A stretch of 64,000 bases of DNA from an uncultured Cytophagales bacterium (GTDB taxonomy: Bacteria; Bacteroidota; Bacteroidia; Cytophagales; Spirosomataceae). Position numbers and translations under genes: made by a program. The stretch covers positions 1-64,000 of the forward strand of contig CAXTIG010000012.1 of the NCBI GenBank assembly GCA_964244295.1, in the 5' to 3' direction. Below, piece by piece: positions 27,909-43,900 of this stretch (its first letter is position 1; each line of letters begins with the position of its first letter). Below the pieces are notes generated by a model. That model was not told the origin of the DNA, made no database searches, and saw only the letters and a list, made by a program, of their open reading frames with translations.

Positions 27909-28039
27909 TAATGTGCGAATTGCTAATGTGCTAATTTCTAATGGGCAGACGTGCAAATGTACCGCTGAAAAAAGGGATGCATTGGCTTATTTGCGCTTTC
28001 GAGCATTAGAAATTAGCACATTAGCAATTCGCACATTAT
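27909..28039. repeat. palindromic element, family B (TAATGTGCGAATTGCTAATGTGCTAATTTCTAATG), copy 1; perfect 35-bp arms
   Basis: Arms 27909-27943 and 28005-28039 are exact reverse complements. The right arm contains the TAA stop of the response-regulator gene. Confidence 0.8.
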
Positions 28040-28818
28040 TTCCCCATCCACTTCTTAAAATCACTCACCTTCTCCCGGCTCACGAGGGCCTCTTTCTCAA
28101 AAGCGGGGCGGAGCGTCAGCGCGAGGCGGTTGCCGAAGTACGGCTGGATTTGGTCGACGGTGCGGTGGGTGACGAGCACGCCCCGGTTGATGCGGAAAAA
28201 CTGCGCCGGGTCGAGGGCCTCGGCCAGGTCGTCGAGGGTGTAATCGACCAGGAACCGCTGGTTGGCGTGGGTGACGAAGAAACTGTAGCGCTCGTCGGTG
28301 TAGAAATAGGCAATTTCGCCCACTTCGATGGACAGCATCCGCTGCCCCTGCCGCACCAGAAAGCGCTGCCGGTACTCACGGGAAGAGTGTCGCTGAAACT
28401 GCCGGAGTAGGCTTTCGAGGTGTTGAGCCGGGTTACTGGCCGGGCGGCCGCGCAGGGCCTCGTACTTTTTCAGGCTCCGCTCCAGGTCTTCGCGCTGCAC
28501 GGGTTTGAGCAGGTAGTCGATGCTGTTGACCTTGAATGCTTGCAGGGCGTATTCGTCGTAGGAAGTCGTGAAAATGACGGTGCTGCGCACGGGCGTGCGG
28601 TCGAAAATCTCGAAGCTCTGCCCGTCGGCCAGTTCGATGTCCAGGAAAATCAGGTCGGGTTCGGGCTGACCCGCCGCCCGCTGGGATTCGAGCCAGTCCA
28701 CGGTTTCTTCGATGCTGGCGGTGGTGCCGGTCACGGTCAGGGTAGGGGCCACGTCGTGGAGCAACTTCTGAAGTTTGCGGACGGCCAGTTCTTCGTCTTC
28801 GACAAGCAACGCGGTCAT
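28036..28818 (-). CDS. LytTR-family response regulator (REC + LytTR DNA-binding)
   Basis: 260 aa. REC motifs (LLVEDE, DLIFLDIELADG, TTSYDEYAL) and LytTR tail (FFRINRGVLV). Confidence 0.85.
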   Translation of the reverse strand: MTALLVEDEELAVRKLQKLLHDVAPTLTVTGTTASIEETVDWLESQRAAGQPEPDLIFLDIELADGQSFEIFDRTPVRSTVIFTTSYDEYALQAFKVNSIDYLLKPVQREDLERSLKKYEALRGRPASNPAQHLESLLRQFQRHSSREYRQRFLVRQGQRMLSIEVGEIAYFYTDERYSFFVTHANQRFLVDYTLDDLAEALDPAQFFRINRGVLVTHRTVDQIQPYFGNRLALTLRPAFEKEALVSREKVSDFKKWMGK

Positions 28819-28945
28819 GGGTGGAGATTGAGTGATTGAGTGACTGAGTGAGGGATTTATTGAGTGATTGAGTGAAGGAGTGATTGAGTGAGAAAAAGAC
28901 AGGTGAATTTCTCCTCACTCAATCACTCAATAAACCCCTCACTCA
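28819..28945. repeat. TGAGTGA heptamer-rich imperfect palindrome in the kinase/regulator intergenic region
   Basis: gagtgattgagtgactgagtgagggatttattgagtgattgagtgaaggagtgattgagtgag followed by its approximate reverse complement ctcactcaatcactcaataaacccctcactcagtcac. Confidence 0.65.
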
Positions 28946-30028
28946 GTCACCAAACAGCGGAAGGGTAACGGTAAAAAAATCAGGACCGGACTCGATGACC
29001 GGCTCGGTCTGGCCCAGCAACCGGTACTTGGCCGAAATGTTGGCGAGGCCGATTTGGGTTGAAATCACGCGGCTGGTCTTTTTTTGAAGGTTGTTGCGTA
29101 CCTGGAGGTGGCCGTCGTCGGTGGTTCGGATTTCGACGTGCAAGGGGCGGTTCGCTAAAATTACGTTGTGTTTCACGGCATTTTCGACCAGCAATTGCAG
29201 CGTCAGCGGCGGCAGGCCGTGGTGGCGGTAGCGGTCGGATACGTTGAGGCTCAGGTGCAGGCCCGTGCCGTGACGGGTTTTGAGCAGGTGGTAATACGAT
29301 TCGATAAACCGCAGTTCCGTGTCCAGCGTGGTGAGTTCATCGCCGGAAGCGGCGTCTTCATGTCGGTTGGTTTGCAGGAGGTAGCGGTACACCCGCGCCA
29401 TTTCGTCCACGAATTGCTCGGCCCGCTCCGGTTCGTCGGCAATCATCGACGAAAGCGAGTTGAGGCTGTTGAACAAAAAGTGCGGGTTCACCTGGCTTTT
29501 CAGGCTTTGCAACTGGCCCTGAAGGTTTTCCTTGCGCAATTTTTCCTTGTTCACCTGGTGCTTCTGCCACTGGCTGAGCGAGTGGAAGGTTTCGTACAGG
29601 CCCACCGTCAGCATCATTGCCACGAGGTTGAAGAGGTACACCTTCACGAGCGTGGCGAATTCGACCGTCGAGCCAAACAGCCGAAAGTACACGTACAGCC
29701 CGGCAATCATTCCCAGGAAGATCGCCGACAGCACCGTGTGGGCCAGGAGCGTGATCAGCACCCGCCGCAGCGTCTGGTCGAGCCGCCCGTACCGGCGGGT
29801 GATGGCATCCGAAACCTGGCTTTGGGTGAAAAACGTAACCGTCAGGATGGCGGCGTTCAACAGCGTGGCCCCGGCGAAGATTTGCCAACGCTGCCAGTAC
29901 CCGTCCCCGATGAGCAGGTAGCTGAACAGCACCGCAAACCAGGGCATCGTCAGGGCGTAGGCCCAGCGGGTGCGGGGGCTGAGTTGAGAGAAAAAAGACG
30001 AGAACCGGTTCATGGCAAAAGCGGGCAA
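28943..30028 (-). CDS. sensor histidine kinase, LytS-type (TM region + His_kinase + HATPase_c)
   Basis: 361 aa. N-terminal hydrophobic helices, then VNPHFLFNSLNSLSSMI (His_kinase H-box) and LQLLVENAVKHN (N-box). Confidence 0.8.
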   Translation of the reverse strand: MPAFAMNRFSSFFSQLSPRTRWAYALTMPWFAVLFSYLLIGDGYWQRWQIFAGATLLNAAILTVTFFTQSQVSDAITRRYGRLDQTLRRVLITLLAHTVLSAIFLGMIAGLYVYFRLFGSTVEFATLVKVYLFNLVAMMLTVGLYETFHSLSQWQKHQVNKEKLRKENLQGQLQSLKSQVNPHFLFNSLNSLSSMIADEPERAEQFVDEMARVYRYLLQTNRHEDAASGDELTTLDTELRFIESYYHLLKTRHGTGLHLSLNVSDRYRHHGLPPLTLQLLVENAVKHNVILANRPLHVEIRTTDDGHLQVRNNLQKKTSRVISTQIGLANISAKYRLLGQTEPVIESGPDFFTVTLPLFGD

Positions 30029-30105: not shown

Positions 30106-31434
30106 TCAGTCGTGGATAATCGCCTCGAATTCACCCGAAATGCCCATCGTTTCGTGCTTGATGACCCCGCAGCGCTCATCTTCCTCGTGCGCGACGACCA
30201 CCTTGCCTGAGACTTTGATTTTTGCGACTAGTTTGCCGTTGAGGCGCTTGAGGCTTTCCACGGTCACCGTTCCGCCTTCCGCCGTTTTTACCTTGCATTT
30301 CCGGTACACCGACTCGCCCGATTTCCCGGAAATCCCGTTGGTGCCGCCCACGAAGGTATTTTCGACATCGAACGGAAACGAACCGACCTTCAGGGCTTTT
30401 TTCAACCCGATGATGACGAAGCTGATTTTGGTGGGGTCCGCCACGCCCTCGGCCAACACCGACAGCAGCAGTTCGCTGCCGTCGTAGGTGCCGTCGGCGC
30501 GGGGATTGGTAAAGGGTTGCCCGTCGATGTAAAAGTTATTTGGGCCTTTGACGAACAGGTTGCTCACCAACATCAACTGCGCCTTGCCGCCGTGCCGGAG
30601 CGTCACGCTGATCGCCACGGGGTTCGATGCGGGCGCTTTGTCGTGCGGAGCGTGGTAAACGAGTTGCGCCGAGGGACCGTTGTCGGCGTAAGCCACCATT
30701 CCGTCGGGACCCACCTGGCCGGCTGTTTTCAGGGCATCCTGGCCGTTGAGCGTCAGCGCCGCGATGCTGCTGCGCGACGCGACCCGATCCGTCAGCGGAG
30801 CCAGCAGTTCGTTGAGCGGATCGGATAAATCCACGTTCTCCAGGCCGTTGTATCCGGCCAGAATGGTGAGTTTCAACTCCCTCGTCTGGCCGACGAACAG
30901 CGTATCGGCTTCGGGGTCCAGCTTGTATTCCGTTACCAGCGACCACCAACTGAAGTGCGTGATGGTCGTGGTGATCGTGCGGGCGGCGCGGTTTACTGTC
31001 GCGGCGCGGGCCAGCATCCAAACGCGTTCCTGATTTTGGAAGGCGACACCCAGCGCCTCGGGCGTGGTGCCGAGCAGTTCGTCGTCGGTGTAGCGGTAGG
31101 TGAAGGTGACGGGTTTGGCGAAGGTCGCGCCGTCGGGGCCGAATTCGTAGCCGGTGCCCAGGCCGTTGGGGGCCTTGTTTTCAACGGGCCGGACGGTGAT
31201 GGCCGTTTCTTTCGCGACGGCCCCGGCGGGGAAGGTGAGCGTGAGCTTGCCGTCGGGCGTCGAGAGGGTACCGCCCGCCGGGCCGATAGCTTTGGTGGTG
31301 ACGGGGCCGGTGGGCTGGCCGATTTCGGTGGGCGTGCCCGTGCCGGTTTCGGGGTCGGTAGGAAGGGGGTCGGTCGAGGGCTTGCAGGCCAGCAGGCCGA
31401 GCAGGGCGAGGGGGAGAAGGGAGGTGAGTTTCAT
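30106..31434 (-). CDS. lipoprotein, paralogue family member 1 (conserved N-terminal module TIGPAGGTLTTPDGK.TLTFPAGAV.KETAITV)
   Basis: Lipobox LLGLLAC. Shares an approximately 100-aa N-terminal module and overall architecture with 31749..33092 and 34944..36227. Confidence 0.6.
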   Translation of the reverse strand: MKLTSLLPLALLGLLACKPSTDPLPTDPETGTGTPTEIGQPTGPVTTKAIGPAGGTLSTPDGKLTLTFPAGAVAKETAITVRPVENKAPNGLGTGYEFGPDGATFAKPVTFTYRYTDDELLGTTPEALGVAFQNQERVWMLARAATVNRAARTITTTITHFSWWSLVTEYKLDPEADTLFVGQTRELKLTILAGYNGLENVDLSDPLNELLAPLTDRVASRSSIAALTLNGQDALKTAGQVGPDGMVAYADNGPSAQLVYHAPHDKAPASNPVAISVTLRHGGKAQLMLVSNLFVKGPNNFYIDGQPFTNPRADGTYDGSELLLSVLAEGVADPTKISFVIIGLKKALKVGSFPFDVENTFVGGTNGISGKSGESVYRKCKVKTAEGGTVTVESLKRLNGKLVAKIKVSGKVVVAHEEDERCGVIKHETMGISGEFEAIIHD

Positions 31435-31748
31435 CGGGAATGGATGAGGTTTTTTGCTGAAAGAATGGGTCAAAACTCGGCTCCCGGCCCCTGGGTTTCA
31501 ACCGCCGAATGTCTGAATTGGCATACGCGGTGTTTGAATTGCGTTCCGGCGAGGGCGAATTGCAACACCATTCCAGTCGGTAAAGGGCGTAGGGAAAAGA
31601 AGGAATCGGCAGGCTGATTGAAAACCGTTGAACCTGAACCTCGTTCAGGTCGTGGAGTCGTCGAACGGCTGACCCAGGAACCGGATTCAGCAAAGCCCCG
31701 GCGCGCTTATGCGCACCGGGGCTTTGAGGGAAAAACTGCGAACCAGGC

Positions 31749-33092
31749 CTATTTTTTGATCAAGACCGTCAGGCCAGCCTGAACGGACATCGTTTTATGG
31801 AGCGTGGTCGTGCAGGTCTGGGGGTTGTAGTCGTGTTCCGTGACGATGGAGCCGCTAACCCGCAGCACCAATTTGGTGTAGCCATTCACCACCTCGGCAC
31901 TAAGCACCTCAACCGTACCGGATTCGGTCAGGGCCTTCTGACAATTCGCGTAGTAGGACTCGCCCCCGGCCTCTAGATTCGTGGCGGAAAAATCCATCGC
32001 ACTGATCGAAGTGCCGTGCTGGTAATCCGGGCTAAAAGCGTGCGACCCGACCGAGATATCGTTGATGGTGACCTGAAGCGTACCGTCTTTACCGGCCGCG
32101 TTCGCTCCCGATGCCAGGATGACGACTTGCCCGTTCACCAACCCGCCCAGCGTACTGATGTTCGTGTCGAACGCGTGCCCGTTGATGGTGAGGTAATCGC
32201 CTTTGGCAATGGTGACCAGGCTCGACAGCAGAAACACGGCCTTCCCGCCCGGATTTTTCAACTCAACCGTCACCATCACGGGGTTGGTCGCTGGTTTGCC
32301 CGACGGGGCCACGTACAGGATCTGCCCGGTCTGTCGGTTCTGACTTACCGTTCCAAAAGTCCGGTCTTTGGGTGTTGCAGTGGTCCAGTCCACGCCGTTG
32401 AGGTAGAGCTTCGCAACATCCTTGCCGGCATCCGTGTAGTAGGGGGTTAACGGAGCCAGCAGGTCGGAATTTTCCTTCGCAAACGTGGCCTCATCGGCCA
32501 CTTTCGACAGCTTCAACTCCAGCGTTTCGTTCACGTTGACGGCGGTCTCCTCCGGGTTCAACTTGTACTGGGTAATCAAGGCCCACCAGGCGCCTTTTTT
32601 CAGTTTAGTCGTCACGGTCTTTCTGGCCTTGTCGGCCGTTGCCAGCCGAGTCATCAACCAGGCGTTTCGGCCATCCTGAAAAGCAACCCCCAGGGCCTCT
32701 ACCGAACCAGCCGCTACTTCCTGATCCTGGTACGTGTACGCCAGCGTAACGGGCTGCTCGAAGGCCAGCCCCGCCGGACTCACCTTGATCCCGAAGCCCA
32801 CGCCGTTGGGGGCCTTGTTTTCGCCGGTCTGCACGGTAATCGCCGTTTCCTTGCTGACCGCCCCGGCCGGAAACGTCAGCGTAATTTTACCGTCGGGCGT
32901 CGTCAGCGTTCCCCCGGCGGGGCCGATGGTTTTGGTCACGGGTGCGCCAAGCACCATACCCACCTCCGTGGGAAGGGCCGTTAAGCTGTCGATGGGCGGC
33001 AGCCCCGCGCCGGAATTGGGAACAATACCGTCGGGCTGGCAGGCCAGCAGGGTAATCAAGGCCAAAACGGGCAAAAGTTGGATGCGTTGCAT
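31749..33092 (-). CDS. lipoprotein, paralogue family member 2
   Basis: Lipobox ALITLLACQP. KTIGPAGGTLTTPDGKITLTFPAGAVSKETAITVQTGENKAPNG closely matches paralogue 1. Confidence 0.6.
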   Translation of the reverse strand: MQRIQLLPVLALITLLACQPDGIVPNSGAGLPPIDSLTALPTEVGMVLGAPVTKTIGPAGGTLTTPDGKITLTFPAGAVSKETAITVQTGENKAPNGVGFGIKVSPAGLAFEQPVTLAYTYQDQEVAAGSVEALGVAFQDGRNAWLMTRLATADKARKTVTTKLKKGAWWALITQYKLNPEETAVNVNETLELKLSKVADEATFAKENSDLLAPLTPYYTDAGKDVAKLYLNGVDWTTATPKDRTFGTVSQNRQTGQILYVAPSGKPATNPVMVTVELKNPGGKAVFLLSSLVTIAKGDYLTINGHAFDTNISTLGGLVNGQVVILASGANAAGKDGTLQVTINDISVGSHAFSPDYQHGTSISAMDFSATNLEAGGESYYANCQKALTESGTVEVLSAEVVNGYTKLVLRVSGSIVTEHDYNPQTCTTTLHKTMSVQAGLTVLIKK

Positions 33093-33140
33093 GGTTGAAA
33101 AGGGAGAGGGTGTGAGGGATTGTGGAGAACTTCAGCGCGA

Positions 33141-33947
33141 CTACCGGTTGGTAAACCGAATGCGCATCATGTTGGCGTAGTAGGAGGATTCGCGCCCGGT
33201 GAAGTCCACCGTCACCGACGGACTGTACGCCATGTCATCGGCCAGGGCATCGCCCACCCGCAGGGCTTCGCCCGTGGGTTTGTACACCGCCGTGACCGTG
33301 TAGCGACCCATCGGCACGTCTTTCAGGTACGCGTCGTAACGCTTGGCGGCCCGCAGTTTTAGGGTTTGGCCCGTCGAGCCGTCGATGAGTGGACCGACCG
33401 GCGTGAAGGTGAACTCGATGTTTTCGTTGTCGCGCAGCCCGTCGGCGTTCGCATCGCGCAGCAGTTCCACCGTGCCGCCGTAGTACAGATCCAGGCTCAG
33501 GTCGGGCACGTGGCCGCTGAGTCTCCACTGAAAATTGCGCACTGGTTTTTCGTCTTCGGTAAAGGAATCCGGGTTTTCGGGGTCGAGGGGAAGTTTGTAC
33601 ACCCGGCCGTTGTAAGTCTTCAGGAGGTAGCCCTTCGCGCCCCACACGCCCAGGCCCGAAACCAGGGCGATCCGGTAGCTGCCGTCGGCGTTGGAAGTCA
33701 CTTCCGAACCCCGGTCTTTCACGACCGTGTTGTAGGAATAAATCGTGGCCCCGGCCAGGGGCCTGCCTTGCGGGTCGGTCACGGTGCCGATCACGTACCC
33801 GGCCTTGCCGCCGGTGGGGGTGTCGATGGGACCATCGGGATCGTCGGGGGGGACGGTCTGCGGCTGGCAGGCGCTGAAGAGGAGCAAACTGCCCAGGGCT
33901 AGCCGCGCAAGGCTAGTCAGGGTGCGGAGGGAAGGGAGTCGGTTCAT
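33141..33947 (-). CDS. lipoprotein with carboxypeptidase-regulatory-like (Ig-like) domain
   Basis: ORF trimmed to MNRLPSLRTL...LLLFSACQ. GTVTDPQGRPLAGATIYS...SNADGSYRI is CarboxypepD_reg-like. Confidence 0.55.
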   Translation of the reverse strand: MNRLPSLRTLTSLARLALGSLLLFSACQPQTVPPDDPDGPIDTPTGGKAGYVIGTVTDPQGRPLAGATIYSYNTVVKDRGSEVTSNADGSYRIALVSGLGVWGAKGYLLKTYNGRVYKLPLDPENPDSFTEDEKPVRNFQWRLSGHVPDLSLDLYYGGTVELLRDANADGLRDNENIEFTFTPVGPLIDGSTGQTLKLRAAKRYDAYLKDVPMGRYTVTAVYKPTGEALRVGDALADDMAYSPSVTVDFTGRESSYYANMMRIRFTNR

Positions 33948-34053
33948 GGGAGAGAAGCGTTGGTTGGGTAAACAACACAAACCTACCCGGCCCGACCCCC
34001 GGCTTCAACGGGCAGTGGGCTGGGTTGGGGAATGAAGCGCATCAACTGAGCAA

Positions 34054-34203
34054 TTGAGGGCCTGAGTTGCAAACGGGCCTAAACAAACCCACCCCCGATC
34101 CCTTGAGGGCCTGAGTTGCAAACGGGCCTAAACAAACCCACCCCCGATCCCTCCCGCCAGGTGGTGGGAAAAGATCGGGGGTGGGTTTGTTTAGGCCCGT
34201 TTC
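34054..34203. repeat. 49-bp tandem direct repeat (x2) followed by an inverted partial copy (30-bp perfect stem)
   Basis: Unit ttgagggcctgagttgcaaacgggcctaaacaaacccacccccgatccc occurs at 34054 and 34103. gatcgggggtgggtttgtttaggcccgttt (34174-34203) is the reverse complement of the unit core. Confidence 0.8.
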
Positions 34204-34252
34204 GGGGCGGGCTGGTTGGCGGGAAGTGGCGTACCCGTTGACCTGACCCGGC

Positions 34253-34870
34253 TTATTCCTTTTTGTAATAAATCAGGTCTCCGCTTTGAAAGTAACGGCC
34301 CCGGCTGTTTTCGCCCAACGTGCAGGCCCAGTCGATGTACGTCTGCGGGTACAGTTTGGCGGGGTCTACGTCGTGCATGAACACGTCGTTGTCGTACAGT
34401 TTGCCTCGGATGGGGTAAAATTTGAAGATCAGGCCGTCGCCGGTTGTTTCGATTTCAAACGTGCCGTCTTCTTCCACGCGTTCGGTGTTTTCCGAGGTGT
34501 AGGTAGCCGTCGAGGCCGTCACGAGGCTGAATCCGGTTCCGTCGGCGTTGAGGTGGTACAACGACCCAAACGACCAGGCCGGCACCGTGTGGCCGTTGGG
34601 CCTGACCACGTTGGTGCCGCTGACGCTGGTGGACAGCCACTCGCCGACGAATTCGGCGGGCACCGGCTTGCGGGGAGCGCTGCCGTAATCCGGGCCGGGG
34701 TCCGCCTGCGGCTGGCAACTCGCCCCGCTGAGCAACCCGGCCACCGAAAAAGCGATTTTCAAAAACGTGAGAAGCCGGGTGTTTGCGAAGAAAGCAGAAA
34801 CGCGGGTGCCGGTCGGGGCGAATTCAGGCGCGAGGTCCTGAAAGGTGATGATTTTTCTGAGCGATTTCAT
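34253..34870 (-). CDS. hypothetical lipoprotein
   Basis: 205 aa. Hydrophobic leader ending LLSGASCQP. No recognised domain. Confidence 0.45.
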   Translation of the reverse strand: MKSLRKIITFQDLAPEFAPTGTRVSAFFANTRLLTFLKIAFSVAGLLSGASCQPQADPGPDYGSAPRKPVPAEFVGEWLSTSVSGTNVVRPNGHTVPAWSFGSLYHLNADGTGFSLVTASTATYTSENTERVEEDGTFEIETTGDGLIFKFYPIRGKLYDNDVFMHDVDPAKLYPQTYIDWACTLGENSRGRYFQSGDLIYYKKE

Positions 34871-34943
34871 GGCTGATAACGGGAGTTGATTGGTTGAAAA
34901 AAGGATGGTACTGGGGTGAAAATGCGTTTTTAGAGACCGAGCG

Positions 34944-36227
34944 TCAGGGATGGGTGGTCATGTAAAACTCGCCGCTGAGGGCCGGACCGGCGGACGTACA
35001 CTGGCTTTCGACGGGAATCACATTGCCGGAAAACGTCCCGGTGACGGCGTGCCGGACGTCGTCGTAGCGGGTGATGGTCACCCGACCCTGGGCTTCGTAG
35101 CTGGTGCCGTTGCAAAACCACTGGCCCGTGTTGTAATCGGTGTACTTGCCGCCGGGCGGGTCGATTCCGAGCTTAATCTGACTCTTCCCCGGCTCGCCGA
35201 TGTCCCCGAAAGGAAAGGTGCCTTCCCCACCGCCCGTTGACGTGATTTGGATGGCGGCGTTGCGATTGCCCGCCGAAATCAGCATAAAATTCGGGTCGTC
35301 GTCGTCGAGGCCGCCGGTGGTCAACTGGTATTCTTTTCCCGCGAACTTCAGTCGGAAATACCCCGTGCCGATAAAAATTTCCCGCAGCAGAATCAACTTT
35401 CGGGGGCTGTTCTGAAACGTAAGCTCCGCCGACAGGGTGACCGGATTTTGCTGCGGAACGTGCGCGGGAGCCTGGTAGGTGGCCTTGTAGCCGTTGGCCC
35501 GAACGCTGCCGTTGCGCGCATCGCCCGCTACCGACCACTTGACGCCGCCGCCGGAACGATACGCCAGGGGCGCTTCCCCCGGACCGGGCGGCAACAACGG
35601 CTCCAGCAAGGCGCTCACCTCAAAATCAGCCGATTCGCCGTAGTACAAAATGGAGCCTTGCTCTTCCCCGCCGTTCAGCGCAAACTTGTCCAACTGGGCC
35701 AGTTCGTAGGGACTCCAGTCGCTGAAGTGCGGCATGGGTACGGAAATCTGGTGCCGGGCGGTGTCGGTTTGAACCCCCGCCACGGCGTACCAAATGCCGT
35801 CGGCCTTTTGGTAGGCGACGCCGAACGCCGCCGGGTCGTGGCTGGAGGCCGCCGCCGGGACGTAGCCGAACGTGAGCGTCGCCGGTTTGCTAAACTGAGT
35901 TCCTTCCGGCAGAAAGCGGTACGCCGGTCCGAGGCCGTTGGGAGCCGGGTTGGTGATGGGCTGAATGCTGAGGACCGTGGCTTTCGCCAGTGCCCCGGCC
36001 GGTAGCAGCAGGCGGACGTTGCCATCGGGCGTGGTGAGGGTACCGCCTTCGGGACCAATGGTTTTGCTCACCAACTCACCGTTGGGCTGACCCACCCCGG
36101 TTACTTCGCCCGCTGGGTTGGTGGGGTCAGGACCGGGTGCGGGGTCTGGTTCGGACGGATTCGGCTGGCAGGCAGCGAGCAGGACACAAAGTGCCCACCC
36201 GACCACCCGGTAGTGCGTGCGGTTCAT
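34944..36227 (-). CDS. lipoprotein, paralogue family member 3
   Basis: ORF trimmed to MNRTHYRVVGWALCVLLAACQP. KTIGPEGGTLTTPDGNVRLLLPAGALAKATVLSIQPITNPAPNG matches paralogues 1 and 2. Confidence 0.6.
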   Translation of the reverse strand: MNRTHYRVVGWALCVLLAACQPNPSEPDPAPGPDPTNPAGEVTGVGQPNGELVSKTIGPEGGTLTTPDGNVRLLLPAGALAKATVLSIQPITNPAPNGLGPAYRFLPEGTQFSKPATLTFGYVPAAASSHDPAAFGVAYQKADGIWYAVAGVQTDTARHQISVPMPHFSDWSPYELAQLDKFALNGGEEQGSILYYGESADFEVSALLEPLLPPGPGEAPLAYRSGGGVKWSVAGDARNGSVRANGYKATYQAPAHVPQQNPVTLSAELTFQNSPRKLILLREIFIGTGYFRLKFAGKEYQLTTGGLDDDDPNFMLISAGNRNAAIQITSTGGGEGTFPFGDIGEPGKSQIKLGIDPPGGKYTDYNTGQWFCNGTSYEAQGRVTITRYDDVRHAVTGTFSGNVIPVESQCTSAGPALSGEFYMTTHP

Positions 36228-36247
36228 GGCTGTTGGGTTGGGGGAGT

Positions 36248-37198
36248 TTAGTACGAATACGTGGACGTCAGGGTACCGCCTGGGCCGCTGCGCACGCACT
36301 GGGTTGGATAACCCTGGCCGTTATACGCGTACACGAAGGTTTCCCGGCTGATTTCCGACCCGTCTTTGAAACGCACGATTTTGGTGCCGTAGTTACTGAC
36401 CCGGAACGTCACATCGGGCAGGTAAGGGTAGGTAGTCAGCAGGTTTTCGACGTGTTTGCCTTCGTCCAGGTAGTTTCCGTAGTGCGTCGTCGTCTCCAAC
36501 GCGTAGTCACCCGATGCCGGACTTTTTACGAACTGAGAAACCACGCGCAGGTTGCCCCGGCTGTCGTATTGGTAGGTTTGCCGGGTTTCCTGCAACCCAT
36601 TGGTGCGGTTTTCGGTATCGACCTGGAGCAACTGGTTCGTTGTCGAATACGCGTACCCGTGTACGTTCAGGCGTTTCCCAGCCGACGAGTATTCTTCCGT
36701 GCGCGTCACGCGGTCGCCCTCGTAGAGGTACCGCACGGAACCGCCCCCGGCGATGTCAACCCGGTTGAGCCGCTGGTCGGGGCCGTACAGAAACTGGTAC
36801 ACAGTGCGTTGAACCCGACCCGTGCTCTGGCTGGCTACGTACTGGCTCGTGTACTGCACGGGTTTCCCCTCGGCGTCGGCGTTGATTTCCTGAAAATCCC
36901 GCGAAGACCAGGCAATTTTCAGGGTTTTGAAAACCCCAACCGGACCACCCGGCTTCGGCCCCGTTGAATCGCCGGGGAGCGGGCCGTTGGGAGTACCGGG
37001 CTTGGAACCCGTCGAGTCGCCCGGCACGGAGCCGGTGTCGCCGGGAAGTTTGATGGGCTCAACCGAGGAGCGATGGCAGGCCGTTGCGAGCAGTGCGGCG
37101 GCGAGGACGAGGGTGAATCGGTTGAAAAAAGGCCGATTGTCTTGCGGGTGAACGGGTGCCAGCGAAGCACCGGAGCGGGCGTTTTTTGACGTTTTCAT
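36248..37198 (-). CDS. lipoprotein with Pro/Gly/Ser-rich internal repeat and YD-repeat-like C-terminal region
   Basis: ORF trimmed to MKTSKNARSG...LLATACH. Internal repeat PGDSTGSKPGTPNGPLPGDSTGPKPGGP. The C-terminal segments YQYDSRGNL and YLYEGDRV resemble YD repeats. Confidence 0.5.
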   Translation of the reverse strand: MKTSKNARSGASLAPVHPQDNRPFFNRFTLVLAAALLATACHRSSVEPIKLPGDTGSVPGDSTGSKPGTPNGPLPGDSTGPKPGGPVGVFKTLKIAWSSRDFQEINADAEGKPVQYTSQYVASQSTGRVQRTVYQFLYGPDQRLNRVDIAGGGSVRYLYEGDRVTRTEEYSSAGKRLNVHGYAYSTTNQLLQVDTENRTNGLQETRQTYQYDSRGNLRVVSQFVKSPASGDYALETTTHYGNYLDEGKHVENLLTTYPYLPDVTFRVSNYGTKIVRFKDGSEISRETFVYAYNGQGYPTQCVRSGPGGTLTSTYSY

Positions 37199-37586: not shown

Positions 37587-38486
37587 TCAGCTAACCGATT
37601 CGATCCCAATTTCTACCCGATGCGACACCTGAGCACGTCCGCCTACCATTAGTCCAGTGATAACGCCGTGTTCCAGATGAAGCCGCACTGTTAGCACACT
37701 CGGTGACGGAGGGTGCATCAGATGACCCTGTTCGATGAGAAAGGTCGTTTTCTTCAACGGCAGAAATTCATGCAGATAGCAGGCCAGTGGCCCAGCCGCC
37801 ATACCCGTAGCCGCCTCTTCGGCGATACCGTAAGCGGGAGCGAACATCCGGGTACCGGCGTCCCGCCCGGGTTTTTGCCCGGTTGGCGAGAAAATGTAAT
37901 AGCCAACCAAGCCCAGTTTTTCGCTGATGGCCTTCACCGCTGACTGGTCGGGAACCACCCGCTGAACGATCCCGGCCGACTCTACGGGAACAATCAGAAA
38001 CGAATTGCCGGTATTGACAACCAGGGGCGAGAGGCCATTGAGTAGTTCAGCGGGTGACAGGCCGAGCGATTCGAGAATGGCATTCTGAGACACTTCGGGG
38101 GCTAGGCTATCCGGGGGAGTGAACGTGGGGGCCGTTTGTTCCATAAAAGCCTGAGCATCGTCCAAAACAATCAACCTAGTGCCGTCAACGGTTTCCATTG
38201 AGCTCTGCTTTTTGGTCAACAGTCCTTGTTGAGCGAGGTAAACGTACGCGGCAATCGTGGCATGGCCGCATTGTGCAATCTGACGGGTGGGGGTGAAGAA
38301 CTCCAACTTGAAGTCTGCAACCGACGACGGAGAAATAAAGGCCGTTTCGGAAAGCCCTACGTTCGTCGCAATCGTCTGTTTGGTCGTTTGATCGTAGCGT
38401 TCGGCGTTCAGGACGATGCCTGCGGCATTACCGCCTTGGGTCGTATCGACAAAGGCGTTAACAAGGTTGACTTTTACGGTTTGCAT
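37587..38486 (-). CDS. PhzF-family phenazine-biosynthesis-like isomerase
   Basis: 299 aa. AFVDTTQGGNAAGIV, ETAFISP, FTP..E...CGHATIAA are typical PhzF/YddE signatures. Confidence 0.75.
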   Translation of the reverse strand: MQTVKVNLVNAFVDTTQGGNAAGIVLNAERYDQTTKQTIATNVGLSETAFISPSSVADFKLEFFTPTRQIAQCGHATIAAYVYLAQQGLLTKKQSSMETVDGTRLIVLDDAQAFMEQTAPTFTPPDSLAPEVSQNAILESLGLSPAELLNGLSPLVVNTGNSFLIVPVESAGIVQRVVPDQSAVKAISEKLGLVGYYIFSPTGQKPGRDAGTRMFAPAYGIAEEAATGMAAGPLACYLHEFLPLKKTTFLIEQGHLMHPPSPSVLTVRLHLEHGVITGLMVGGRAQVSHRVEIGIESVS

Positions 38487-38708: not shown

Positions 38709-39533
38709 TTATTCCCCTAACCAAACTTTAAATTCCCCCGCCCGGTCCCGGCTGATGATGACTTCCTCGCTGAAGGCGGGCCGGAGCGCCGCCTTCAATT
38801 TGCCGTTGAAATAAACACTGACTTTTTCAATCGCCCGCAGTTCGACGATGAGTTGCCGGTTGAGCCGGAAGAAGCGTTCCGGGGGAAGCATACGCTCCAG
38901 TTCTTCCATCGTGTAGTCCACCATCCACTCGTGGGCGTCGCGGGTTTTGAGGTAGGAAAGTTTGTTGCGCGAGAAAAAATACGTCACCTCGTCGAGCGGC
39001 ACCGAAAACAGCCGCTGGCCCTGTTTGATGAGAAAACGATCCCGGACCAGAGGATCCCGGTCAGCCTGACGGCCGGGTTGAAGTTCCGGGCGGAGCGGGG
39101 TCGTCGGGGGCAAACTCAGGTGCCGGAGCAAATCGGTCAGCGACGATTCCAGGGTGCCGGGCGAGTCGGCCAGCGCCCGTTTCATGTCCCGCAGCTTGGT
39201 CAGGGCGCTGCGCAGGTCGTCTTCCTTGACGGGTTTCAGCAGGTAATCCACGCTGTTGACCCGGAACGCTTTGATCGCAAATTCGTCGTAAGCCGTCGTG
39301 AAAATCACCGGGCAGGTAACCGGCACCCGGTTGAAAATCTCGAAACTCTGCCCGTCGGCCAGTTCGATGTCCATCAGAATCAGGTCGGGGGCGGGCTGGG
39401 TTTGCAGCCAGGCCACCGATTCTTCCACGCTGCCGGTCGTTCCGACCACGCTGGCGTTGGGTTCCACGTCCGCCAGGAGGCGTTTCAGCTTGCGGGCGGT
39501 GGGTTCTTCGTCTTCAATGAGCAGGATAGTCAT
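38709..39533 (-). CDS. LytTR-family response regulator (second)
   Basis: 274 aa. ILLIEDEEP, DLILMDIELADG, FRLNRQLIV. Confidence 0.85.
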   Translation of the reverse strand: MTILLIEDEEPTARKLKRLLADVEPNASVVGTTGSVEESVAWLQTQPAPDLILMDIELADGQSFEIFNRVPVTCPVIFTTAYDEFAIKAFRVNSVDYLLKPVKEDDLRSALTKLRDMKRALADSPGTLESSLTDLLRHLSLPPTTPLRPELQPGRQADRDPLVRDRFLIKQGQRLFSVPLDEVTYFFSRNKLSYLKTRDAHEWMVDYTMEELERMLPPERFFRLNRQLIVELRAIEKVSVYFNGKLKAALRPAFSEEVIISRDRAGEFKVWLGE

Positions 39534-40626
39534 GGGACGTTGCGGGTTGAATGAGGGGGAGGAGTACCTGAAACGTGGCGTCGGTTTGTTTCACTACCAC
39601 GTCCGCCTGGCCCAGCAGGCGGTACTTGCTGGTGATGGTACGCAGGCCCAGTTGGCTGGACACCACGGGGGTTTGTTTTTTTTGCAAATTGTTCAAAACG
39701 AACAGGTTGTCGGCTTCGTCGGAATAAATCCGGATCCGGAGCGGTCGGGCGGGCAGGGCGGCGTTGTGCTTGACGGCGTTTTCCACCAGCAGTTGCAGCG
39801 TCAGCGGCGGAATCAAAAACGGCAGGTGGCGTTCGTCCACGTCCAGGGCCAGTTCCACGCTCCGCCCGAAGCGCATTTGCAGCAGGTGAAAGTACGCCCG
39901 GATGAAATCCAGTTCGTCGGCCAGGGAGGTCAGCGGCTGGTCGTTGGTGCGAAGCAAATACCGGTACACCGAGGCCAGTTCTTCGATAAACCGCTCCGCC
40001 TGCCGGGGGTTTTCGGCAACCAACGACGACAGTGTACTCAGGCTGTTGAACAGAAAATGCGGGCTGATTTGCTGTTTCAGGCTCTCCAACTGGGTTTGCA
40101 GGTGTTCTTTCTTCAGCGCCTCCGTTTCCCGCTCCGACCGCAGCAGGCGGGCGAAGTAATACACCGCTTCCAGCGCACCCACGATCACGGTGCTCCGCAG
40201 CAACGCGCTCGAAACCGTGTTGAAAAACGCCGAATCGGGGTACGGCGCGTGGTAGCCCGTGGCGTTGATGAGCAGCATGTCCAGCCAGTCGAGGAGCACG
40301 GTCGCCCCCCAACACACGGGCAGGGCCAGCAGGAGGCGGGTTCGGCTCTGGGAAAGCAGCGGGTACCCGCGCCGGAATCGGCCTAAAATCCAGCGAATCG
40401 TTTCCCAGGTAACGACCGCCAGGAGCAGAAACTCAAGCCCGTGCGCCAGGCTGTTCGCGTTGAGCGGCTTCGCGAAAAACTGGAACCCGTACAGATCCCG
40501 CACGACCAGCAAGCTGATGCCGCCCACGCGAATCCATCGATCATTGACTTCGTTCAAGGGACGTTTGGCGTAAGGTTTTGTCCAATGACCAAAGCTACAC
40601 CGCAGCGGTAGTACGCCCCAACGCAA
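39514..40626 (-). CDS. sensor histidine kinase, LytS-type (second)
   Basis: ISPHFLFNSLSTLSSLV H-box and LQLLVENAVKHN N-box. Overlaps the response-regulator gene by 20 nt. The true start may be an internal Met. Confidence 0.75.
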   Translation of the reverse strand: MRWGVLPLRCSFGHWTKPYAKRPLNEVNDRWIRVGGISLLVVRDLYGFQFFAKPLNANSLAHGLEFLLLAVVTWETIRWILGRFRRGYPLLSQSRTRLLLALPVCWGATVLLDWLDMLLINATGYHAPYPDSAFFNTVSSALLRSTVIVGALEAVYYFARLLRSERETEALKKEHLQTQLESLKQQISPHFLFNSLSTLSSLVAENPRQAERFIEELASVYRYLLRTNDQPLTSLADELDFIRAYFHLLQMRFGRSVELALDVDERHLPFLIPPLTLQLLVENAVKHNAALPARPLRIRIYSDEADNLFVLNNLQKKQTPVVSSQLGLRTITSKYRLLGQADVVVKQTDATFQVLLPLIQPATSHDYPAH

Positions 40627-40911
40627 GGCGGGCCGAACCTTCCAAAAAAACGGCTGAACTGTCGGAGTGCGGGCCTCAATCGCTGGGGAGGGGTCATGGA
40701 TTCAGACCAGGGAGCGGCAGCAAGCAGGCGAGCACTTTTCCTGTTTTACGGTTTTTGAACGGAAAGAATTCAAAAGCACGTCCCCGCGCGATGAATTTTT
40801 GGGCGTGATGCGAGGGTTGGGAGCGGTTCGTTCATCAAGTTTACCGGTAACTTTGGGCGCAAACGTCCTTTGCCAGGGCGTGGCCCGTTTCCAAAAAAAC
40901 CTCCGAACCCG

Positions 40912-43900
40912 ATGCTCCGTACCAAACCCGTCCAAATCTCCCTATTCCTGCTGGCGCTGCTCGTCCTCGTGACGGTGGCCTGCGTAAAAATGACTAGCTC
41001 CAAAACCTCGCGCTCGGCGATGGTGGTGGTGAACGAAGACCCCGCCCAGGGCCGCGTGCGGGCAAAAGAAATCCGCGACAAGGCCAGCGTCACCCTCGCC
41101 GAGGGGCTGCAACTGAGCCTCTGGGCCTCCGATTCGCTGGCGCCCGACCCCGTGTCGATGTCGATCGACGACCGGGGCCGGGTGTACCTGACCCGCACCA
41201 ACCGGCAGAAAAACTCCGAATTCGACATTCGCGGCCACCGCGACTGGATGACGCCCTCCATCGCCCTGCAAACCGTTGAGGAACGCCGGACTTTTCTCCG
41301 AAAAACCTTCGACCCGAAAAACAGCACCGAAAACGAATGGCTCAAGGACCTCAACGAAGACGGCAGCCACGACTGGCGCGACCTGACGGTGGAAAAAGAC
41401 GAGGTCTGGCAACTCGAAGACACCGACCACGACGGCATCGCCGACGTGTCGCGGCGGATTCTGGCTGATTTTTTTGAAGAAATCTCCGACGTGGCCGGGG
41501 GAATCCTCGTGCGGGCGAAAGACACTTTCGTAACCATCGCGCCCGATCTGTGGCGGCTCCGCGACACGAACGGCGACGGCGTTTTGGACCAAAAAACCTC
41601 CATCAGCCACGGCTACGGCGTTCACATCGGCTTCGGCGGGCACGGAATGTCCAACCCCATCGAAGGGCCGGACGGCCGGATTTACTGGAACATCGGCGAC
41701 ATCGGGGCCAACATCACCACCCCCGAAGGCGTCAACCACCCGCGTTCCAACGAAGGCATCATTGCCCGCGCCAACCCCGACGGCTCCGACTTCGAGGTCT
41801 TCGCCGGGGGGCTGCGCAACACCCATGAATTCGTGTTCGACGACTACGGCAACCTGATTTCCTCGGACAACGACGGCGACCACCCCGGCGAAAGCGAGCG
41901 GCTGGTTCACGTCGTCGAAGGCTCGGATGCGGGCTGGCGCTCCAACTGGCAGTACGGAAAATACACTGACCCGAAAAACAACAGCTACAAAGTCTGGATG
42001 GACGAAAAGCTGTACAAACCCCGCTGGGAAGGCCAGGCGGCGTACATCATCCCGCCCATCCAGAATTTTCACAACGGCCCCACCGGGATGGTGTACAACC
42101 CCGGCACCGCCCTCGGATCGGCTTGGAAAAACAAATTTTTTCTCGTTGAATTCGTCGGTAACCCCGCCCGCTCGCCGATCTGGTCGTTCGGGTTGAAACC
42201 CAAAGGTGCGTCGTTCGTGCTCGACGGGGAGAAAAACATCCTCAGCGGCCTGCTGCCCACCGGCATCCGCTTCGGCCCCGACGGGGCGCTGTACGTCGCC
42301 GACTGGATCAATGGCTGGGATACCAAAAATTATGGACGCGTCTGGAAACTCGACGTGACGGAGGAAAAAGCGGATTTGAAAACCCTCCGGGCCGAAACCC
42401 AGCGGCTGATGACCCTCGACTACGCCACCCTAACGGTGGACGTGCTGGGCAACCTGCTCGCCAACCCTGACCAGCGAATCCGACAAAAAGCCCAGTTTGA
42501 ACTGGCCGGGCGCGGGGCCAACGGAGCCGCCGTTTTTACGAAAACCATCGGCCAACGGGAAAATCAACTCGCCCGCATTCACGCCATCTGGGGCACGGGT
42601 CAGTTGGCGCGGCAGCAAGCCGCCTACGGCCAGCCCCTGCTCCCCCTGCTGGCCGACAAAGACCCCGAAATCATCGCCCAGGCGGCCAACGTGCTCGGCG
42701 ATGCCGCCCTGCCCGAAGCCGCTCCGTTGCTGATTCCGTTGTTGAGCAACGCCAGCCCCCGCGTTCAGTTTTTCAGCGCACAGGCGCTCGGACAACTCCG
42801 GCACCAGCCTGCGGTTCAGCCCTTGCTGGCGATGCTCAAAGCCAACCACGACGACGACGTGTACCTGCGCCACGCCGCCGTGCTGGCGCTTTCGCGCATC
42901 GGACAGGCCGAGCCGATGCTGGCGTTGGCGAACAATCCCGACAAATCGCTCCGCCTGGCCGCCGTGCTCGTGTTGCGGCGAATGAAAGACGCCAACGTGG
43001 CCCGGTTCCTCCAGGACAGCGACGAGTACATCGCGACCGAAGCGGCCCGGACCATCAACGACGACGAGTCGCTTCCTTCGGCGCTGCCCGCCCTAGCCGC
43101 GACGCTGAAAGAAACGCGCTTCACGTCGGAAGCCCTGCTCCGGCGCGGCATCAACGCCTGCGTCCGGGTGGGCGGCGAGGAGCAACTCGATCTGCTGCTG
43201 GCGTTTGCGAAGCGAAAAACCGTTGAAAAAACCCTGCGGGCCGAGGCCCTGGCCGCGCTGGGCACCTGGGCCAGTCCCTCGGTACTCGACCGGGTGGATG
43301 GGCGCTACCGGGGCATCGTGGAGCGGAATCCGGTGCTGGTTCGGGGAAAAATCGGACCGCACGTGGAGGCGTTGTTGAATGATTCGGACGAAGTCGTGCA
43401 GATCGCCACGGCGCAGCTACTCGGCAACCTGGCGCTGGCGGAGGCGAATCCCCCGGTGGTGCGCCTGTTCAACGAGAGCCGCTCCGCCGACGTGCGGGCG
43501 GCGGCGCTGACGACGCTCGGTCAGTTGAAGTACGGCGACCTGGAATCGCTCATCAAAAAAGGCATGAACGACCCCAACCCCGACGTGCGCACGGTGGCCC
43601 TGGGGCAACTGAGCGGCCAAACCCTCTCGGCGGAAACACTGGCGGAGGTGTCGAAAGCCATTTTCGAAAAAGGCAGCGTGAAGGAGCAACAGCAACTACT
43701 CCGGGTGCTGGGCACCATGCCCGCCGCGAATACCGAGCGGGTTCTCGACGGCCTGGTCGACAAACTGGCTGCCAAAACGCTGGACCCCAGCCTGACGCTG
43801 GAACTGGGCGAAGCCGTGGACGCCACCAAATCGGCTCCGCTGCTGGCCAAACTGGCCCCGCTGCGTTCCACGGGCACCGGTACGACGGCCGATTTCAGCG

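Follow-up and report, generated by a model that had tools for sequence, protein, structure and literature searches.

What does a run of six lipoprotein genes do directly upstream of a LytS/LytTR two-component system? The question is raised by a locus of an uncultured Cytophagales bacterium of the Spirosomataceae. The stretch analysed, called the window below, comprises positions 1 to 64,000 of contig CAXTIG010000012.1 (assembly GCA_964244295.1). The six genes follow one another on the minus strand and are named F, E, D, C, B and A in the direction of transcription; A is followed by a histidine kinase gene (HK1) and a response regulator gene (RR1). An earlier note, made from the sequence alone, had described A, B and E as paralogues with a common N-terminal module and had proposed a regulated cell-surface function for the cluster. 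The common module is a ZU5 domain, which in A and E carries a predicted autoproteolytic site, and gene A is preceded by a triple repeat predicted to be bound by the LytTR regulator. The account that joins these elements, in which A-type proteins are self-cleaving, tethered ZU5 lipoproteins controlled by phosphorylated RR1, seems to us reasonably probable.

The module shared by A, B and E is a ZU5 domain

30106-31434, minus strand: paralogue A, 442 amino acids (aa), lipobox LLAC/KPS
30910-31302, minus strand: ZU5 domain of A
31749-33092, minus strand: paralogue B, 447 aa, lipobox LLAC/QPD
32550-32942, minus strand: ZU5 domain of B
34944-36227, minus strand: paralogue E, 427 aa, lipobox LAAC/QPN
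35682-36074, minus strand: ZU5 domain of E

The relationship between the three paralogues was verified: A is 41% identical to B and 34% identical to E, and the motif quoted in the earlier note was found again (KTIGPAGGTLTTPDGK..TLTFPAGA..KET.I..QP.EN.APNG). The shared module, given there as about 100 aa long, measures about 130 aa (residues ~45-175 of A). It had been called unassignable to any family; both Pfam and Foldseek identify it as ZU5, and UniRef names several relatives 'ZU5 domain-containing protein'. The Pfam ZU5 profile (PF00791, gathering score 21 bits) scores 24.3 bits in E and 22.6 bits in B, which both pass, and 20.3 bits in A. Precomputed PF00791 matches exist for the relatives P0005 and P0029, and the domain profile matched the ankyrin ZU5 domain among PDB sequences (E 8e-4).

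A model of A was built with AlphaFold2 on a 42-sequence alignment, with a mean predicted local distance difference test score (pLDDT) of 88.2. In this model the module adopts the ZU5 beta-sandwich fold. The Foldseek comparison that the earlier note had called for was run on it, and the top 11 PDB matches were all ZU5 domains (ankyrin, UNC5B, ZO-1; probability 1.00), with template modelling scores of 0.62-0.65 on the isolated ankyrin domain. The earlier note had left room for the paralogues to fall into a known family, and this came true in part: the family is ZU5, although the literature searched contained no experimental work on a bacterial ZU5 domain.

The family is very large. An exhaustive profile search gave 10,312 cluster representatives at E<=1e-3 and 2,744 at 1e-10, mostly 400-500 aa long with the domain at about residues 45-180. 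A protein-database profile search yielded 47 relatives from Cytophagales (Emticicia, Fibrella, Larkinella, Rhabdobacter, Salmonirosea) and from Chitinophagales. With additional relatives in Dadabacteria, Myxococcota and Dehalococcoidales, the family is not restricted to Cytophagales, a restriction that had been suggested for checking. Envelope lipoproteins of about 430-460 aa make up this large bacterial family, to which A, B and E belong.

All six minus-strand reading frames are present, each with a hydrophobic stretch and a lipobox-like Cys, as had been reported; lipoboxes were called by inspecting the pattern by eye. Cys17 is invariant in the 42-member alignment, and a lipobox-like pattern is found in 143 of 190 relatives. 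From sequence and model, A is predicted to consist of a lipid-modified Cys17, a Pro/Thr/Asp-rich linker (~28 residues), the ZU5 domain, an Ig-like sandwich and an LpqH-like beta domain, and B has the same layout. The C-terminal fragment of A (residues 162-442), modelled alone with a pLDDT of 86.9, matches only generic tandem Ig-like structures. A UPA domain after ZU5, which would have made the protein a bacterial FIIND, was considered and rejected, since none of the structure matches of this C-terminal model contained a UPA. The C-terminal domain of E weakly resembles DUF6252 (21.2 bits, cut-off 27.2) and Riean_0653 (NF052634; 28 bits, cut-off 57). The C-terminal halves had been said to diverge, which is true of their sequences (30% and 21% identity to A), but they can be aligned throughout the family and the same folds are predicted for them.

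A predicted self-cleavage site in A and E

30949-30957, minus strand: codons of His160-Phe161-Ser162 of A, predicted autoproteolytic site with the cut between Phe161 and Ser162
35721-35729, minus strand: codons of His167-Phe168-Ser169 of E, intact motif
32589-32597, minus strand: K-G-A of B at the position of HFS, predicted non-cleaving

The tripeptide [H/S]-F-[S/T/C] preceding the last ZU5 strand is found in A and E and is absent from B (local sequences TITHFSWWSLV in A, PMPHFSDWSP in E and LKKGAWWALI in B). In the model of A, H160-F161-S162 lies in a two-residue turn between strands 153-160 and 163-168 (pLDDT 93-94), and two short strands follow the turn before the domain ends. This position fits the self-cleavage site described for CARD8, NLRP1, PIDD and Nup98 (PMC3210808). 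In the proven HF/S sites, a buried Phe precedes the Ser, and this Ser is the nucleophile of an N-to-O acyl shift (PMC3210808).

Conservation of the tripeptide was followed in 209 domains from 190 proteins. HF is followed by Ser, Thr or Cys in 161 of them (133 Ser, 26 Thr and 2 Cys), and of the 164 domains that keep the middle Phe, 161 have one of these residues in third place. These three residues are exactly the possible nucleophiles. The conservation as a whole points to a function. Among 42 close family members, 31 have kept HFS or HFT, and in the other 11, including B, the His, the Phe and the Ser are all lost together. The motif is kept as well in the relatives from Dadabacteria, Myxococcota, Dehalococcoidales and one Burkholderiales metagenome-assembled genome, and a Gemmatimonadales relative has SFS, as in FIIND. 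Finally, when residues 162-442 of A were modelled alone, the first segment (SWWSLVTE) dropped its strand conformation together with its confidence. The loss of this strand without ZU5 agrees with its being the strand by which the ZU5 sandwich is completed and by which the fragments would be held together after cleavage. From the sequences, the models and the analogy with characterised sites, the ZU5 domain of A and E is predicted to be a single-turnover autopeptidase, and B is predicted from its sequence to be a non-cleaving paralogue.

Several observations weigh against this assignment. A falls just under the PF00791 gathering score (20.3 against 21 bits). A number of eukaryotic ZU5 domains (ankyrin, UNC5B, ZO-1) are non-cleaving, and the best structural matches of A are precisely these. 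Pfam and PDB sequence alignments span only the N-terminal half of ZU5, and the equivalence of HFS with known sites therefore rests on the secondary structure of the model and on published descriptions. In the literature searched, cleavage by bacterial ZU5 domains is only predicted, by comparative genomics (Zhang et al. 2012, PMC3482391).

These points bear on an alternative in which ZU5 is a non-catalytic, structural or binding beta-sandwich, HFS is kept for folding through its buried Phe, and the proteins are uncleaved adhesin-like or ligand-binding lipoproteins. Such a role is in keeping with the non-cleaving best matches, with the Phe being a conserved core residue even in non-cleaving templates (Leu in UNC5B; PMC3210808) and with motif-less paralogues such as B being retained and conserved. 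However, a third residue confined to Ser, Thr or Cys in nearly all Phe-keeping domains would be unexpected for a purely structural motif. The concerted disappearance of His, Phe and Ser in degenerate paralogues also argues against it, as does the identity of the motif with experimentally proven HF/S sites (PMC3210808). We consider the non-catalytic alternative unlikely.

Some relatives have three to six ZU5 domains in tandem: P0048 (869 aa, 6 matched stretches), P0084 (898 aa, 5) and P0055, P0057, P0078 and P0141 (3 each). If each domain cleaves, one precursor would give rise to a string of non-covalently linked pieces.

A triple repeat and a predicted promoter upstream of gene A

31515-31563, minus strand: triple direct repeat (tGCAATTCg, cGCAATTCa, gCCAATTCa), predicted LytTR regulator sites
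31471-31501, minus strand: predicted promoter core of A (TTG at 31501-31499, -7-like box GAGTTTTG at 31478-31471, ATG at 31434)
28943-30028, minus strand: HK1, LytS-type histidine kinase (PF06580, E 8.5e-23)
28036-28818, minus strand: RR1, response regulator (Response_reg E 1.4e-11, LytTR E 1.8e-19), predicted binder of the A repeats

The LytS-type kinase and LytTR regulator noted downstream of the cluster on the same strand were confirmed by profile match of their domains. Upstream of A, the repeat cores are located at 31562-57, 31541-36 and 31520-15, with a start-to-start spacing of exactly 21 bp. A pattern search of the window found two overlapping repeat pairs, against 0.05-0.16 expected. 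Bacteroidetes promoters have the consensus -33 TTG / -7 TAnnTTTG. Counted from the start of the third repeat, the -7-like box of A begins at 42 nt, an offset equal to two further 21-bp steps; it is preceded, at a distance of 20 nt, by a TTG. Known LytTR sites are repeats of 9-11 nt separated by spacers of 11-13 nt and placed 8-11 nt upstream of the -35 element (PMC4847170; PMC6193735 Table 2); this target-promoter geometry was found upstream of A only. The YpdB site GGCATTTCAT (PMC4847170) is resembled by the window repeats TACATTTCT and ACAATTCAT and by the consensus ATACAATTCAT.

The window and 34 related loci, 634 kb in total, were scanned for CA[AGT]TT[CG] chained at 20-22 bp. The scan gave 47 chains compared to 6.3 in shuffled sequences. 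Triple chains numbered 12, at 10 distinct loci, where 0.05 were expected, and all of them are co-oriented with a ZU5 gene or its operon and lie ~100-250 bp upstream. The ten loci are the window (gene A), L001, Emticicia L004, L006, L009, L010, L014, Fibrella musci L015, Dyadobacter L022 and Spirosoma L026, and they represent at least four named genera as well as unnamed relatives. In F. musci the triple repeat stands upstream of a C-B pair orthologous to that of the window, and in Spirosoma at the orthologous E-type unit. The Dyadobacter and Spirosoma repeats occur without this two-component system nearby. In all ten loci, an xAnnTTTG box is found at +42 from repeat 3 (+43 in one locus). Repeat pairs of this motif are also present upstream of kinase genes in related loci, and more than 20 independent metagenome loci have them ahead of HK-HK-RR operons, as predicted by autoregulation through this regulator clade. 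On the strength of these sequence patterns, we predict that A is a direct LytTR target, probably along with HK1-RR1.

A position weight matrix (PWM) built from 30 repeat sites was used to scan the whole window, and the A promoter was the only place with high pair scores (26.6 and 26.1). Two points count against the proposed control by RR1. No comparable site was found by the whole-window PWM scan upstream of C-B or of F-E-D; a single CAATTC precedes F, 52 nt before a -7-like box and out of register. B, C, D, E and F were accordingly not found to belong to the same regulon. Moreover, the A repeats could be bound by another regulator of the RR1 clade, such as RR2, a second LytTR regulator that is 44.6% identical to RR1. 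A scan for sigma-70-type promoters and terminators gave results at chance level, as expected for Bacteroidota.

The triple 21-bp repeat also stands before other genes in metagenome loci that contain RR1-related regulators. At L083 (4418-4460) and L093 (15881-15923), the targets belong to a family of 252-aa lipoproteins (MKKILILAVAASTFIFAC...). At L060 (4567-4524), L068 (6676-6635) and L069 (7656-7615), they are proteins of ~1000 aa whose propeller-type repeats are of a kind usual in Bacteroidota hybrid regulators. These non-ZU5 targets hint at a wider regulon logic for the regulator clade.

Transcription units and their boundaries

31691-31726, minus strand: hairpin with a 16-bp stem, 94% complementary, 23 nt past the B stop
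34054-34202, no strand: element of two direct repeats and one inverted repeat (DR-DR-IR), a 49-nt unit present twice (34054-34151) and a 30-nt inverted arm (34173-34202), all perfect

The intergenic gaps are 20 nt between F and E, 73 nt between E and D, 48 nt between C and B and 77 nt between A and HK1; the last contains no repeat and no clear terminator. To judge from its sequence, the hairpin at 31691-31726 is likely a terminator parting C-B from A. The intergenic DR-DR-IR reported earlier is confirmed, and its 49-nt direct copies and its 30-nt inverted arm are 100% identical. It forms a long hairpin just after the D stop (RNA fold z-score -7.8) and is unique in the window. Such perfect identity points to a recent duplication or to a small mobile element of palindromic form. 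Both 49-nt units hold GCAACTCAG, one mismatch from the regulator half-site GCAATTCAG but out of register.

From spacing and hairpins we infer three transcription units, F-E-D, C-B and A-HK1-RR1, of which only the last is predicted from its upstream sequence to be LytTR-dependent in this window. The proposal of a regulated cell-surface module is thus upheld in so far as a non-random cluster of envelope lipoprotein genes is tied to LytTR by the A operator and by synteny. With a site at A only and hairpins between the units, the six genes do not form one regulated module on present evidence.

The HK1-RR1 spacer (28826-28950, 124 nt) consists almost entirely of repeats. It contains an 8-nt tandem array, GATTGAGT repeated ~8 times (28826-28891), and a 36-nt inverted repeat, 97% complementary (28840-28875 / 28915-28950). 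It could be an attenuator or a processing structure that uncouples kinase and regulator expression.

Linkage of ZU5 genes to the two-component system

The window proteins were compared with 34 loci holding family members, found partly with a 12-sequence ZU5 alignment. Of 24 distinct Bacteroidota loci, 12 have orthologues of RR1 (59-82% identity, against 44.6% for the in-genome paralogue RR2) and HK1 (48-62%) no more than 10 kb from the ZU5 gene. They comprise L001, which belongs to a close relative, five Emticicia species, Fibrella musci, two loci of F. forsythiae, Fibrivirga algicola and two uncultured Cytophagales. Three arrangements occur: ZU5-HK-RR (window, L001), HK-HK-RR-ZU5 (Emticicia) and ZU5...HK-HK-HK-RR (Fibrella, Fibrivirga). 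The existence of three gene orders indicates that the linkage has outlived rearrangement.

The linkage has clear limits, which count against a fixed partnership. The remaining 12 of the 24 ZU5 loci lack this two-component system within 10 kb. When the search was started from RR1, a ZU5 gene was present in only 1 of 80 metagenome loci, and this one is the L001 contig (JGI metagenome 3300035008), already included in the first comparison. Most of the 80 loci represent other orthologous groups (53-57% regulator and 35-40% kinase identity) and lack ZU5. A 9.3-kb contig with a regulator 69% identical to RR1 (L038) also lacks it. The association of ZU5 with LytTR is frequent, not obligatory, and the suggestion that the family might always neighbour LytTR systems holds for half of the loci.

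HK1 has four predicted transmembrane helices connected by loops of 8-18 aa and no extracytoplasmic domain; its start may be the ATG at 30013. This structure bears on a second alternative, in which the ZU5 lipoprotein would be the extracytoplasmic sensing partner of a loop-less, intramembrane-type kinase, and ligand, force or envelope damage would free or expose the held fragment and so switch the kinase on or off. In its favour, HK1 is devoid of a sensor domain, and the linkage of ZU5, HK and RR is kept through three gene orders. The order of repeats, ZU5, HK and RR in the window and L001 is also the layout of autoinduced three-component LytTR systems, and RsgI offers a precedent for autoproteolysis in bacterial transmembrane signalling (PMC10328401). 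Against it, no kinase lies near one half of the ZU5 loci, and close relatives of RR1 occur without ZU5. Furthermore, the same regulator clade drives unrelated targets (the 252-aa lipoproteins and the ~1000-aa proteins), which better fits an output gene than a sensor. The co-sensor role, an analogy with known receptors, is in our view quite doubtful, and the same low credence applies to its mode of action through the held fragment.

Just upstream of the cluster, within 15 kb, a second LytS/LytTR pair is encoded at 38709-40626, whose members RR2 and HK2 share 45-47% identity with RR1 and HK1. The same stretch encodes a third PF06580 kinase, an orphan (44480-45580) with 38% identity to HK1. The neighbourhood thus brings together three kinases, two regulators and three ZU5 paralogues. 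Related loci likewise have 2-3 kinases per regulator.

The accompanying lipoproteins and neighbouring genes

33141-33947, minus strand: lipoprotein C, 268 aa, lipobox FSAC/QPQ
34253-34870, minus strand: lipoprotein D, 205 aa, lipobox GASC/QPQ
36248-37198, minus strand: lipoprotein F, 316 aa, lipobox ATAC/HRS

Lipoprotein C was rightly recognised as CarboxypepD_reg-like (PF13620, E 2.8e-9). Its orthologues (56-66% identity) stand directly upstream of B-type ZU5 genes, those with a degenerate site, in L005 and L015, and C-B is therefore a conserved pair. D and F gave no Pfam match even at E 10, no NCBIfam match and nothing usable in a search of PDB sequences. No homologue of either was found in the 34 related loci; D and F are not conserved members of the cluster. 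Both have unusually long n-regions, and their real starts may be further downstream.

The C-B pair and the fold of the C-terminal part have a bearing on a third alternative, nutrient capture. The head of Ig-like and small beta domains would bind a glycan, a metal chelate or a protein on behalf of an outer-membrane transporter, in the manner of SusE/F, BtuG, HmuY or TbpB. Tandem beta-sandwiches, as predicted by the model, would suit this role, and LytS-type systems control nutrient transporters elsewhere, for example YpdAB and yhjX (PMC4847170). Neither a SusC/SusD nor a TonB-dependent transporter gene was seen among the genes examined from 26 to 50 kb, however, and no SusE/F protein was among the top structure matches; nor would capture explain the autopeptidase motif. 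We therefore see little likelihood in nutrient capture, and as little in the corollary that C is part of the same uptake machinery.

The signal for surface export that may follow the lipobox Cys, an acidic stretch of the lipoprotein export signal (LES) type, is mixed in the family and unclear in A, B and E. A contact-dependent role, which the earlier note had entertained, would make the cluster a polymorphic-toxin system with F as the remnant of an RHS shell. Bacterial ZU5 domains were indeed first described at the N-termini of RHS/TcdB-TcaC-type toxins (PMC3482391), and strings resembling YxYDxxGxL can be picked out by eye in F. The likeness of F to YD repeats had been proposed on the same grounds; its PGDSTG repeat is present twice, as stated, but the YD likeness is visual only and finds no Pfam support, the RHS_repeat family giving no match even at E 10, and none of the related loci contains F. 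The three paralogues are ~440 aa long, with nothing but Ig-like and beta domains and no enzymatic domain past ZU5, and no RHS, SpvB, toxin or immunity family was detected in the six proteins with Pfam and NCBIfam. A toxin or contact-dependent system is close to excluded. A role in a surface layer, also mentioned earlier, received no positive support.

The upstream end of the lipoprotein run is marked by a PhzF-family isomerase gene (37587-38486, minus strand, E 1.7e-46) located between F and the second LytTR regulator. Between the second two-component pair and the third kinase lies the gene of a 1154-aa protein (40870-44334, plus strand) in which DUF7133 and HEAT/Arm repeats are joined to a cytochrome c domain at the C-terminus. 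Where the window has B to F, L001 (4784-7646), the locus of the closest relative, has an MmeI-like fragment, a SmaI-type restriction enzyme and an N4/N6 methyltransferase. The presence of these restriction genes shows that the flank of the conserved ZU5-HK-RR core varies between close relatives.

Proposed mechanism

What the observed genes, ZU5 fold, HF[S/T/C] conservation, repeat and promoter layout and synteny let us infer about cleavage, regulator binding, co-transcription and cellular location is the following. HK1 would phosphorylate RR1, which would bind the three repeats and activate the A promoter. The three repeats, spaced 21 bp apart, would lie one helical phase upstream of a Bacteroidetes -33/-7 promoter, and this promoter would probably drive HK1-RR1 as well, resulting in positive autoregulation. 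A would be exported, lipidated at Cys17 and kept off the membrane by its flexible linker of ~28 residues. The nucleophile, Ser162 in A and Ser169 in E, would cut the Phe-Ser bond before it through an N-to-O acyl shift, once per molecule, as in PIDD, Nup98, CARD8 and NLRP1. The cut would leave a lipid-anchored ZU5 stub of ~15 kDa in A. The C-terminal head (~30 kDa, Ig-like and LpqH-like) would stay attached non-covalently, held because its first strand (WWSLVT, 163-168) completes the ZU5 sandwich. This would yield a releasable binding module, cleaved yet still held, with a tether that can break. E would act as A does, and B, predicted to be non-cleaving, would work with the CarboxypepD_reg lipoprotein C.

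Comparison with known systems

The animal proteins PIDD1, UNC5CL, NLRP1 and CARD8 and the autoproteolytic domain of Nup98 are cytosolic or nuclear, whereas A, B and E are extracytoplasmic bacterial lipoproteins for which cleavage is a prediction. In animal ZU5/FIIND proteins, UPA, death or CARD domains follow; A, B and E lack these and have a generic Ig-like fold instead. ZU5-type self-cleavage controls the PIDDosome and the NLRP1/CARD8 inflammasomes and is related to GAIN cleavage in adhesion G protein-coupled receptors (GPCRs). A bacterial origin of this type of self-cleavage has been proposed from sequence analysis only. The GAIN domain with its GPCR proteolysis site (GPS), present in adhesion GPCRs and polycystin-1, cleaves and holds its fragments; unlike these receptors, A-type chains have no seven-transmembrane partner in the same chain, and a signalling role for them is speculative. 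The GAIN cleavage motif is HL/T or HL/S and stands in a subdomain context different from that of A. The bacterial lipoproteins NlpE (NlpE-CpxA) and RcsF are envelope sensors and thus precedents for a lipoprotein that feeds a transmembrane signalling system, with folds and pathways unrelated to ZU5; the co-sensor would resemble them, and also feedback partners such as CpxP.

Also comparable are the bacterial ZU5 autopeptidase domains that Zhang, de Souza, Anantharaman, Iyer and Aravind (2012, PMC3482391) predicted for large surface proteins and for polymorphic toxins of the RHS/TcdB-TcaC type. As in the window, these domains are bacterial, secreted and N-terminal, and are predicted to release a surface-exposed C-terminal part. 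The window lipoproteins differ from them in being compact (~440 aa) and in lacking RHS, an enzymatic or toxin domain and an immunity gene. Intact and degenerate paralogues in one cluster, the LytS/LytTR link and the promoter motif are not part of that description. The autoproteolytic anti-sigma factor RsgI (PMC10328401) is a precedent for extracytoplasmic autoproteolysis feeding into transmembrane signalling, with a fold and a pathway unrelated to ZU5.

The regulatory side resembles the three-component systems AgrCA, ComDE and PlnBCD, as well as LytSR-lrgAB, YpdAB-yhjX and the streptococcal HdrRM/BrsRM. All have a PF06580 kinase, a receiver-LytTR regulator and repeats with a period of ~21 bp upstream of the promoter, together with an adjacent target gene and likely autoregulation. 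In contrast to these modules, the locus described here has three repeats rather than two, a -33/-7 promoter at a fixed 42-nt offset and several kinases per regulator. Its target is a predicted self-cleaving lipoprotein, where theirs is a peptide precursor, a holin-like protein or a transporter.

Significance

Bacterial ZU5 autopeptidases, as pure predictions, and LytTR operators were already known. To judge from the literature searched, the compact lipoprotein architecture is new, with dead and intact paralogues as neighbours, and so is the very large family behind it. Likewise new is the precisely conserved LytTR operator and promoter, with the lipoprotein as the hallmark target of one Bacteroidota LytS/LytTR clade. 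Intact (A, E) and naturally dead (B) ZU5 proteins, small, soluble and easy to express, are an ideal pair on which to test whether and how the bacterial ZU5 domain cleaves. The operator layout, ATACAATTCAT three times at 21 bp with a -7 box at +42 and a conserved target gene, makes the LytS/LytTR clade testable. Cytophagales and Chitinophagales genomes appear rich in such systems, an impression that is uncounted; the literature searched yielded no example whose signal or regulon is known.

A bolder reading joins the ZU5 lipoprotein and the loop-less LytS-type kinase into a 'cleave-and-hold' receptor, in which the head, after self-cleavage, would hang on by one beta-strand, its release or rearrangement through ligand, shear or envelope damage would be the signal, and LytTR with its triple repeat would re-induce the lipoprotein. 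We hold this to be improbable on the evidence given for the co-sensor. If true, feedback of a lipoprotein on its kinase would constitute a new type of bacterial receptor. GAIN signalling in adhesion GPCRs and FIIND signalling in NLRP1 and CARD8 would then have a prokaryotic counterpart, which may even be their evolutionary source. Such a receptor would also give the hugely expanded, uncharacterised LytS/LytTR systems of Bacteroidota their first input and output.

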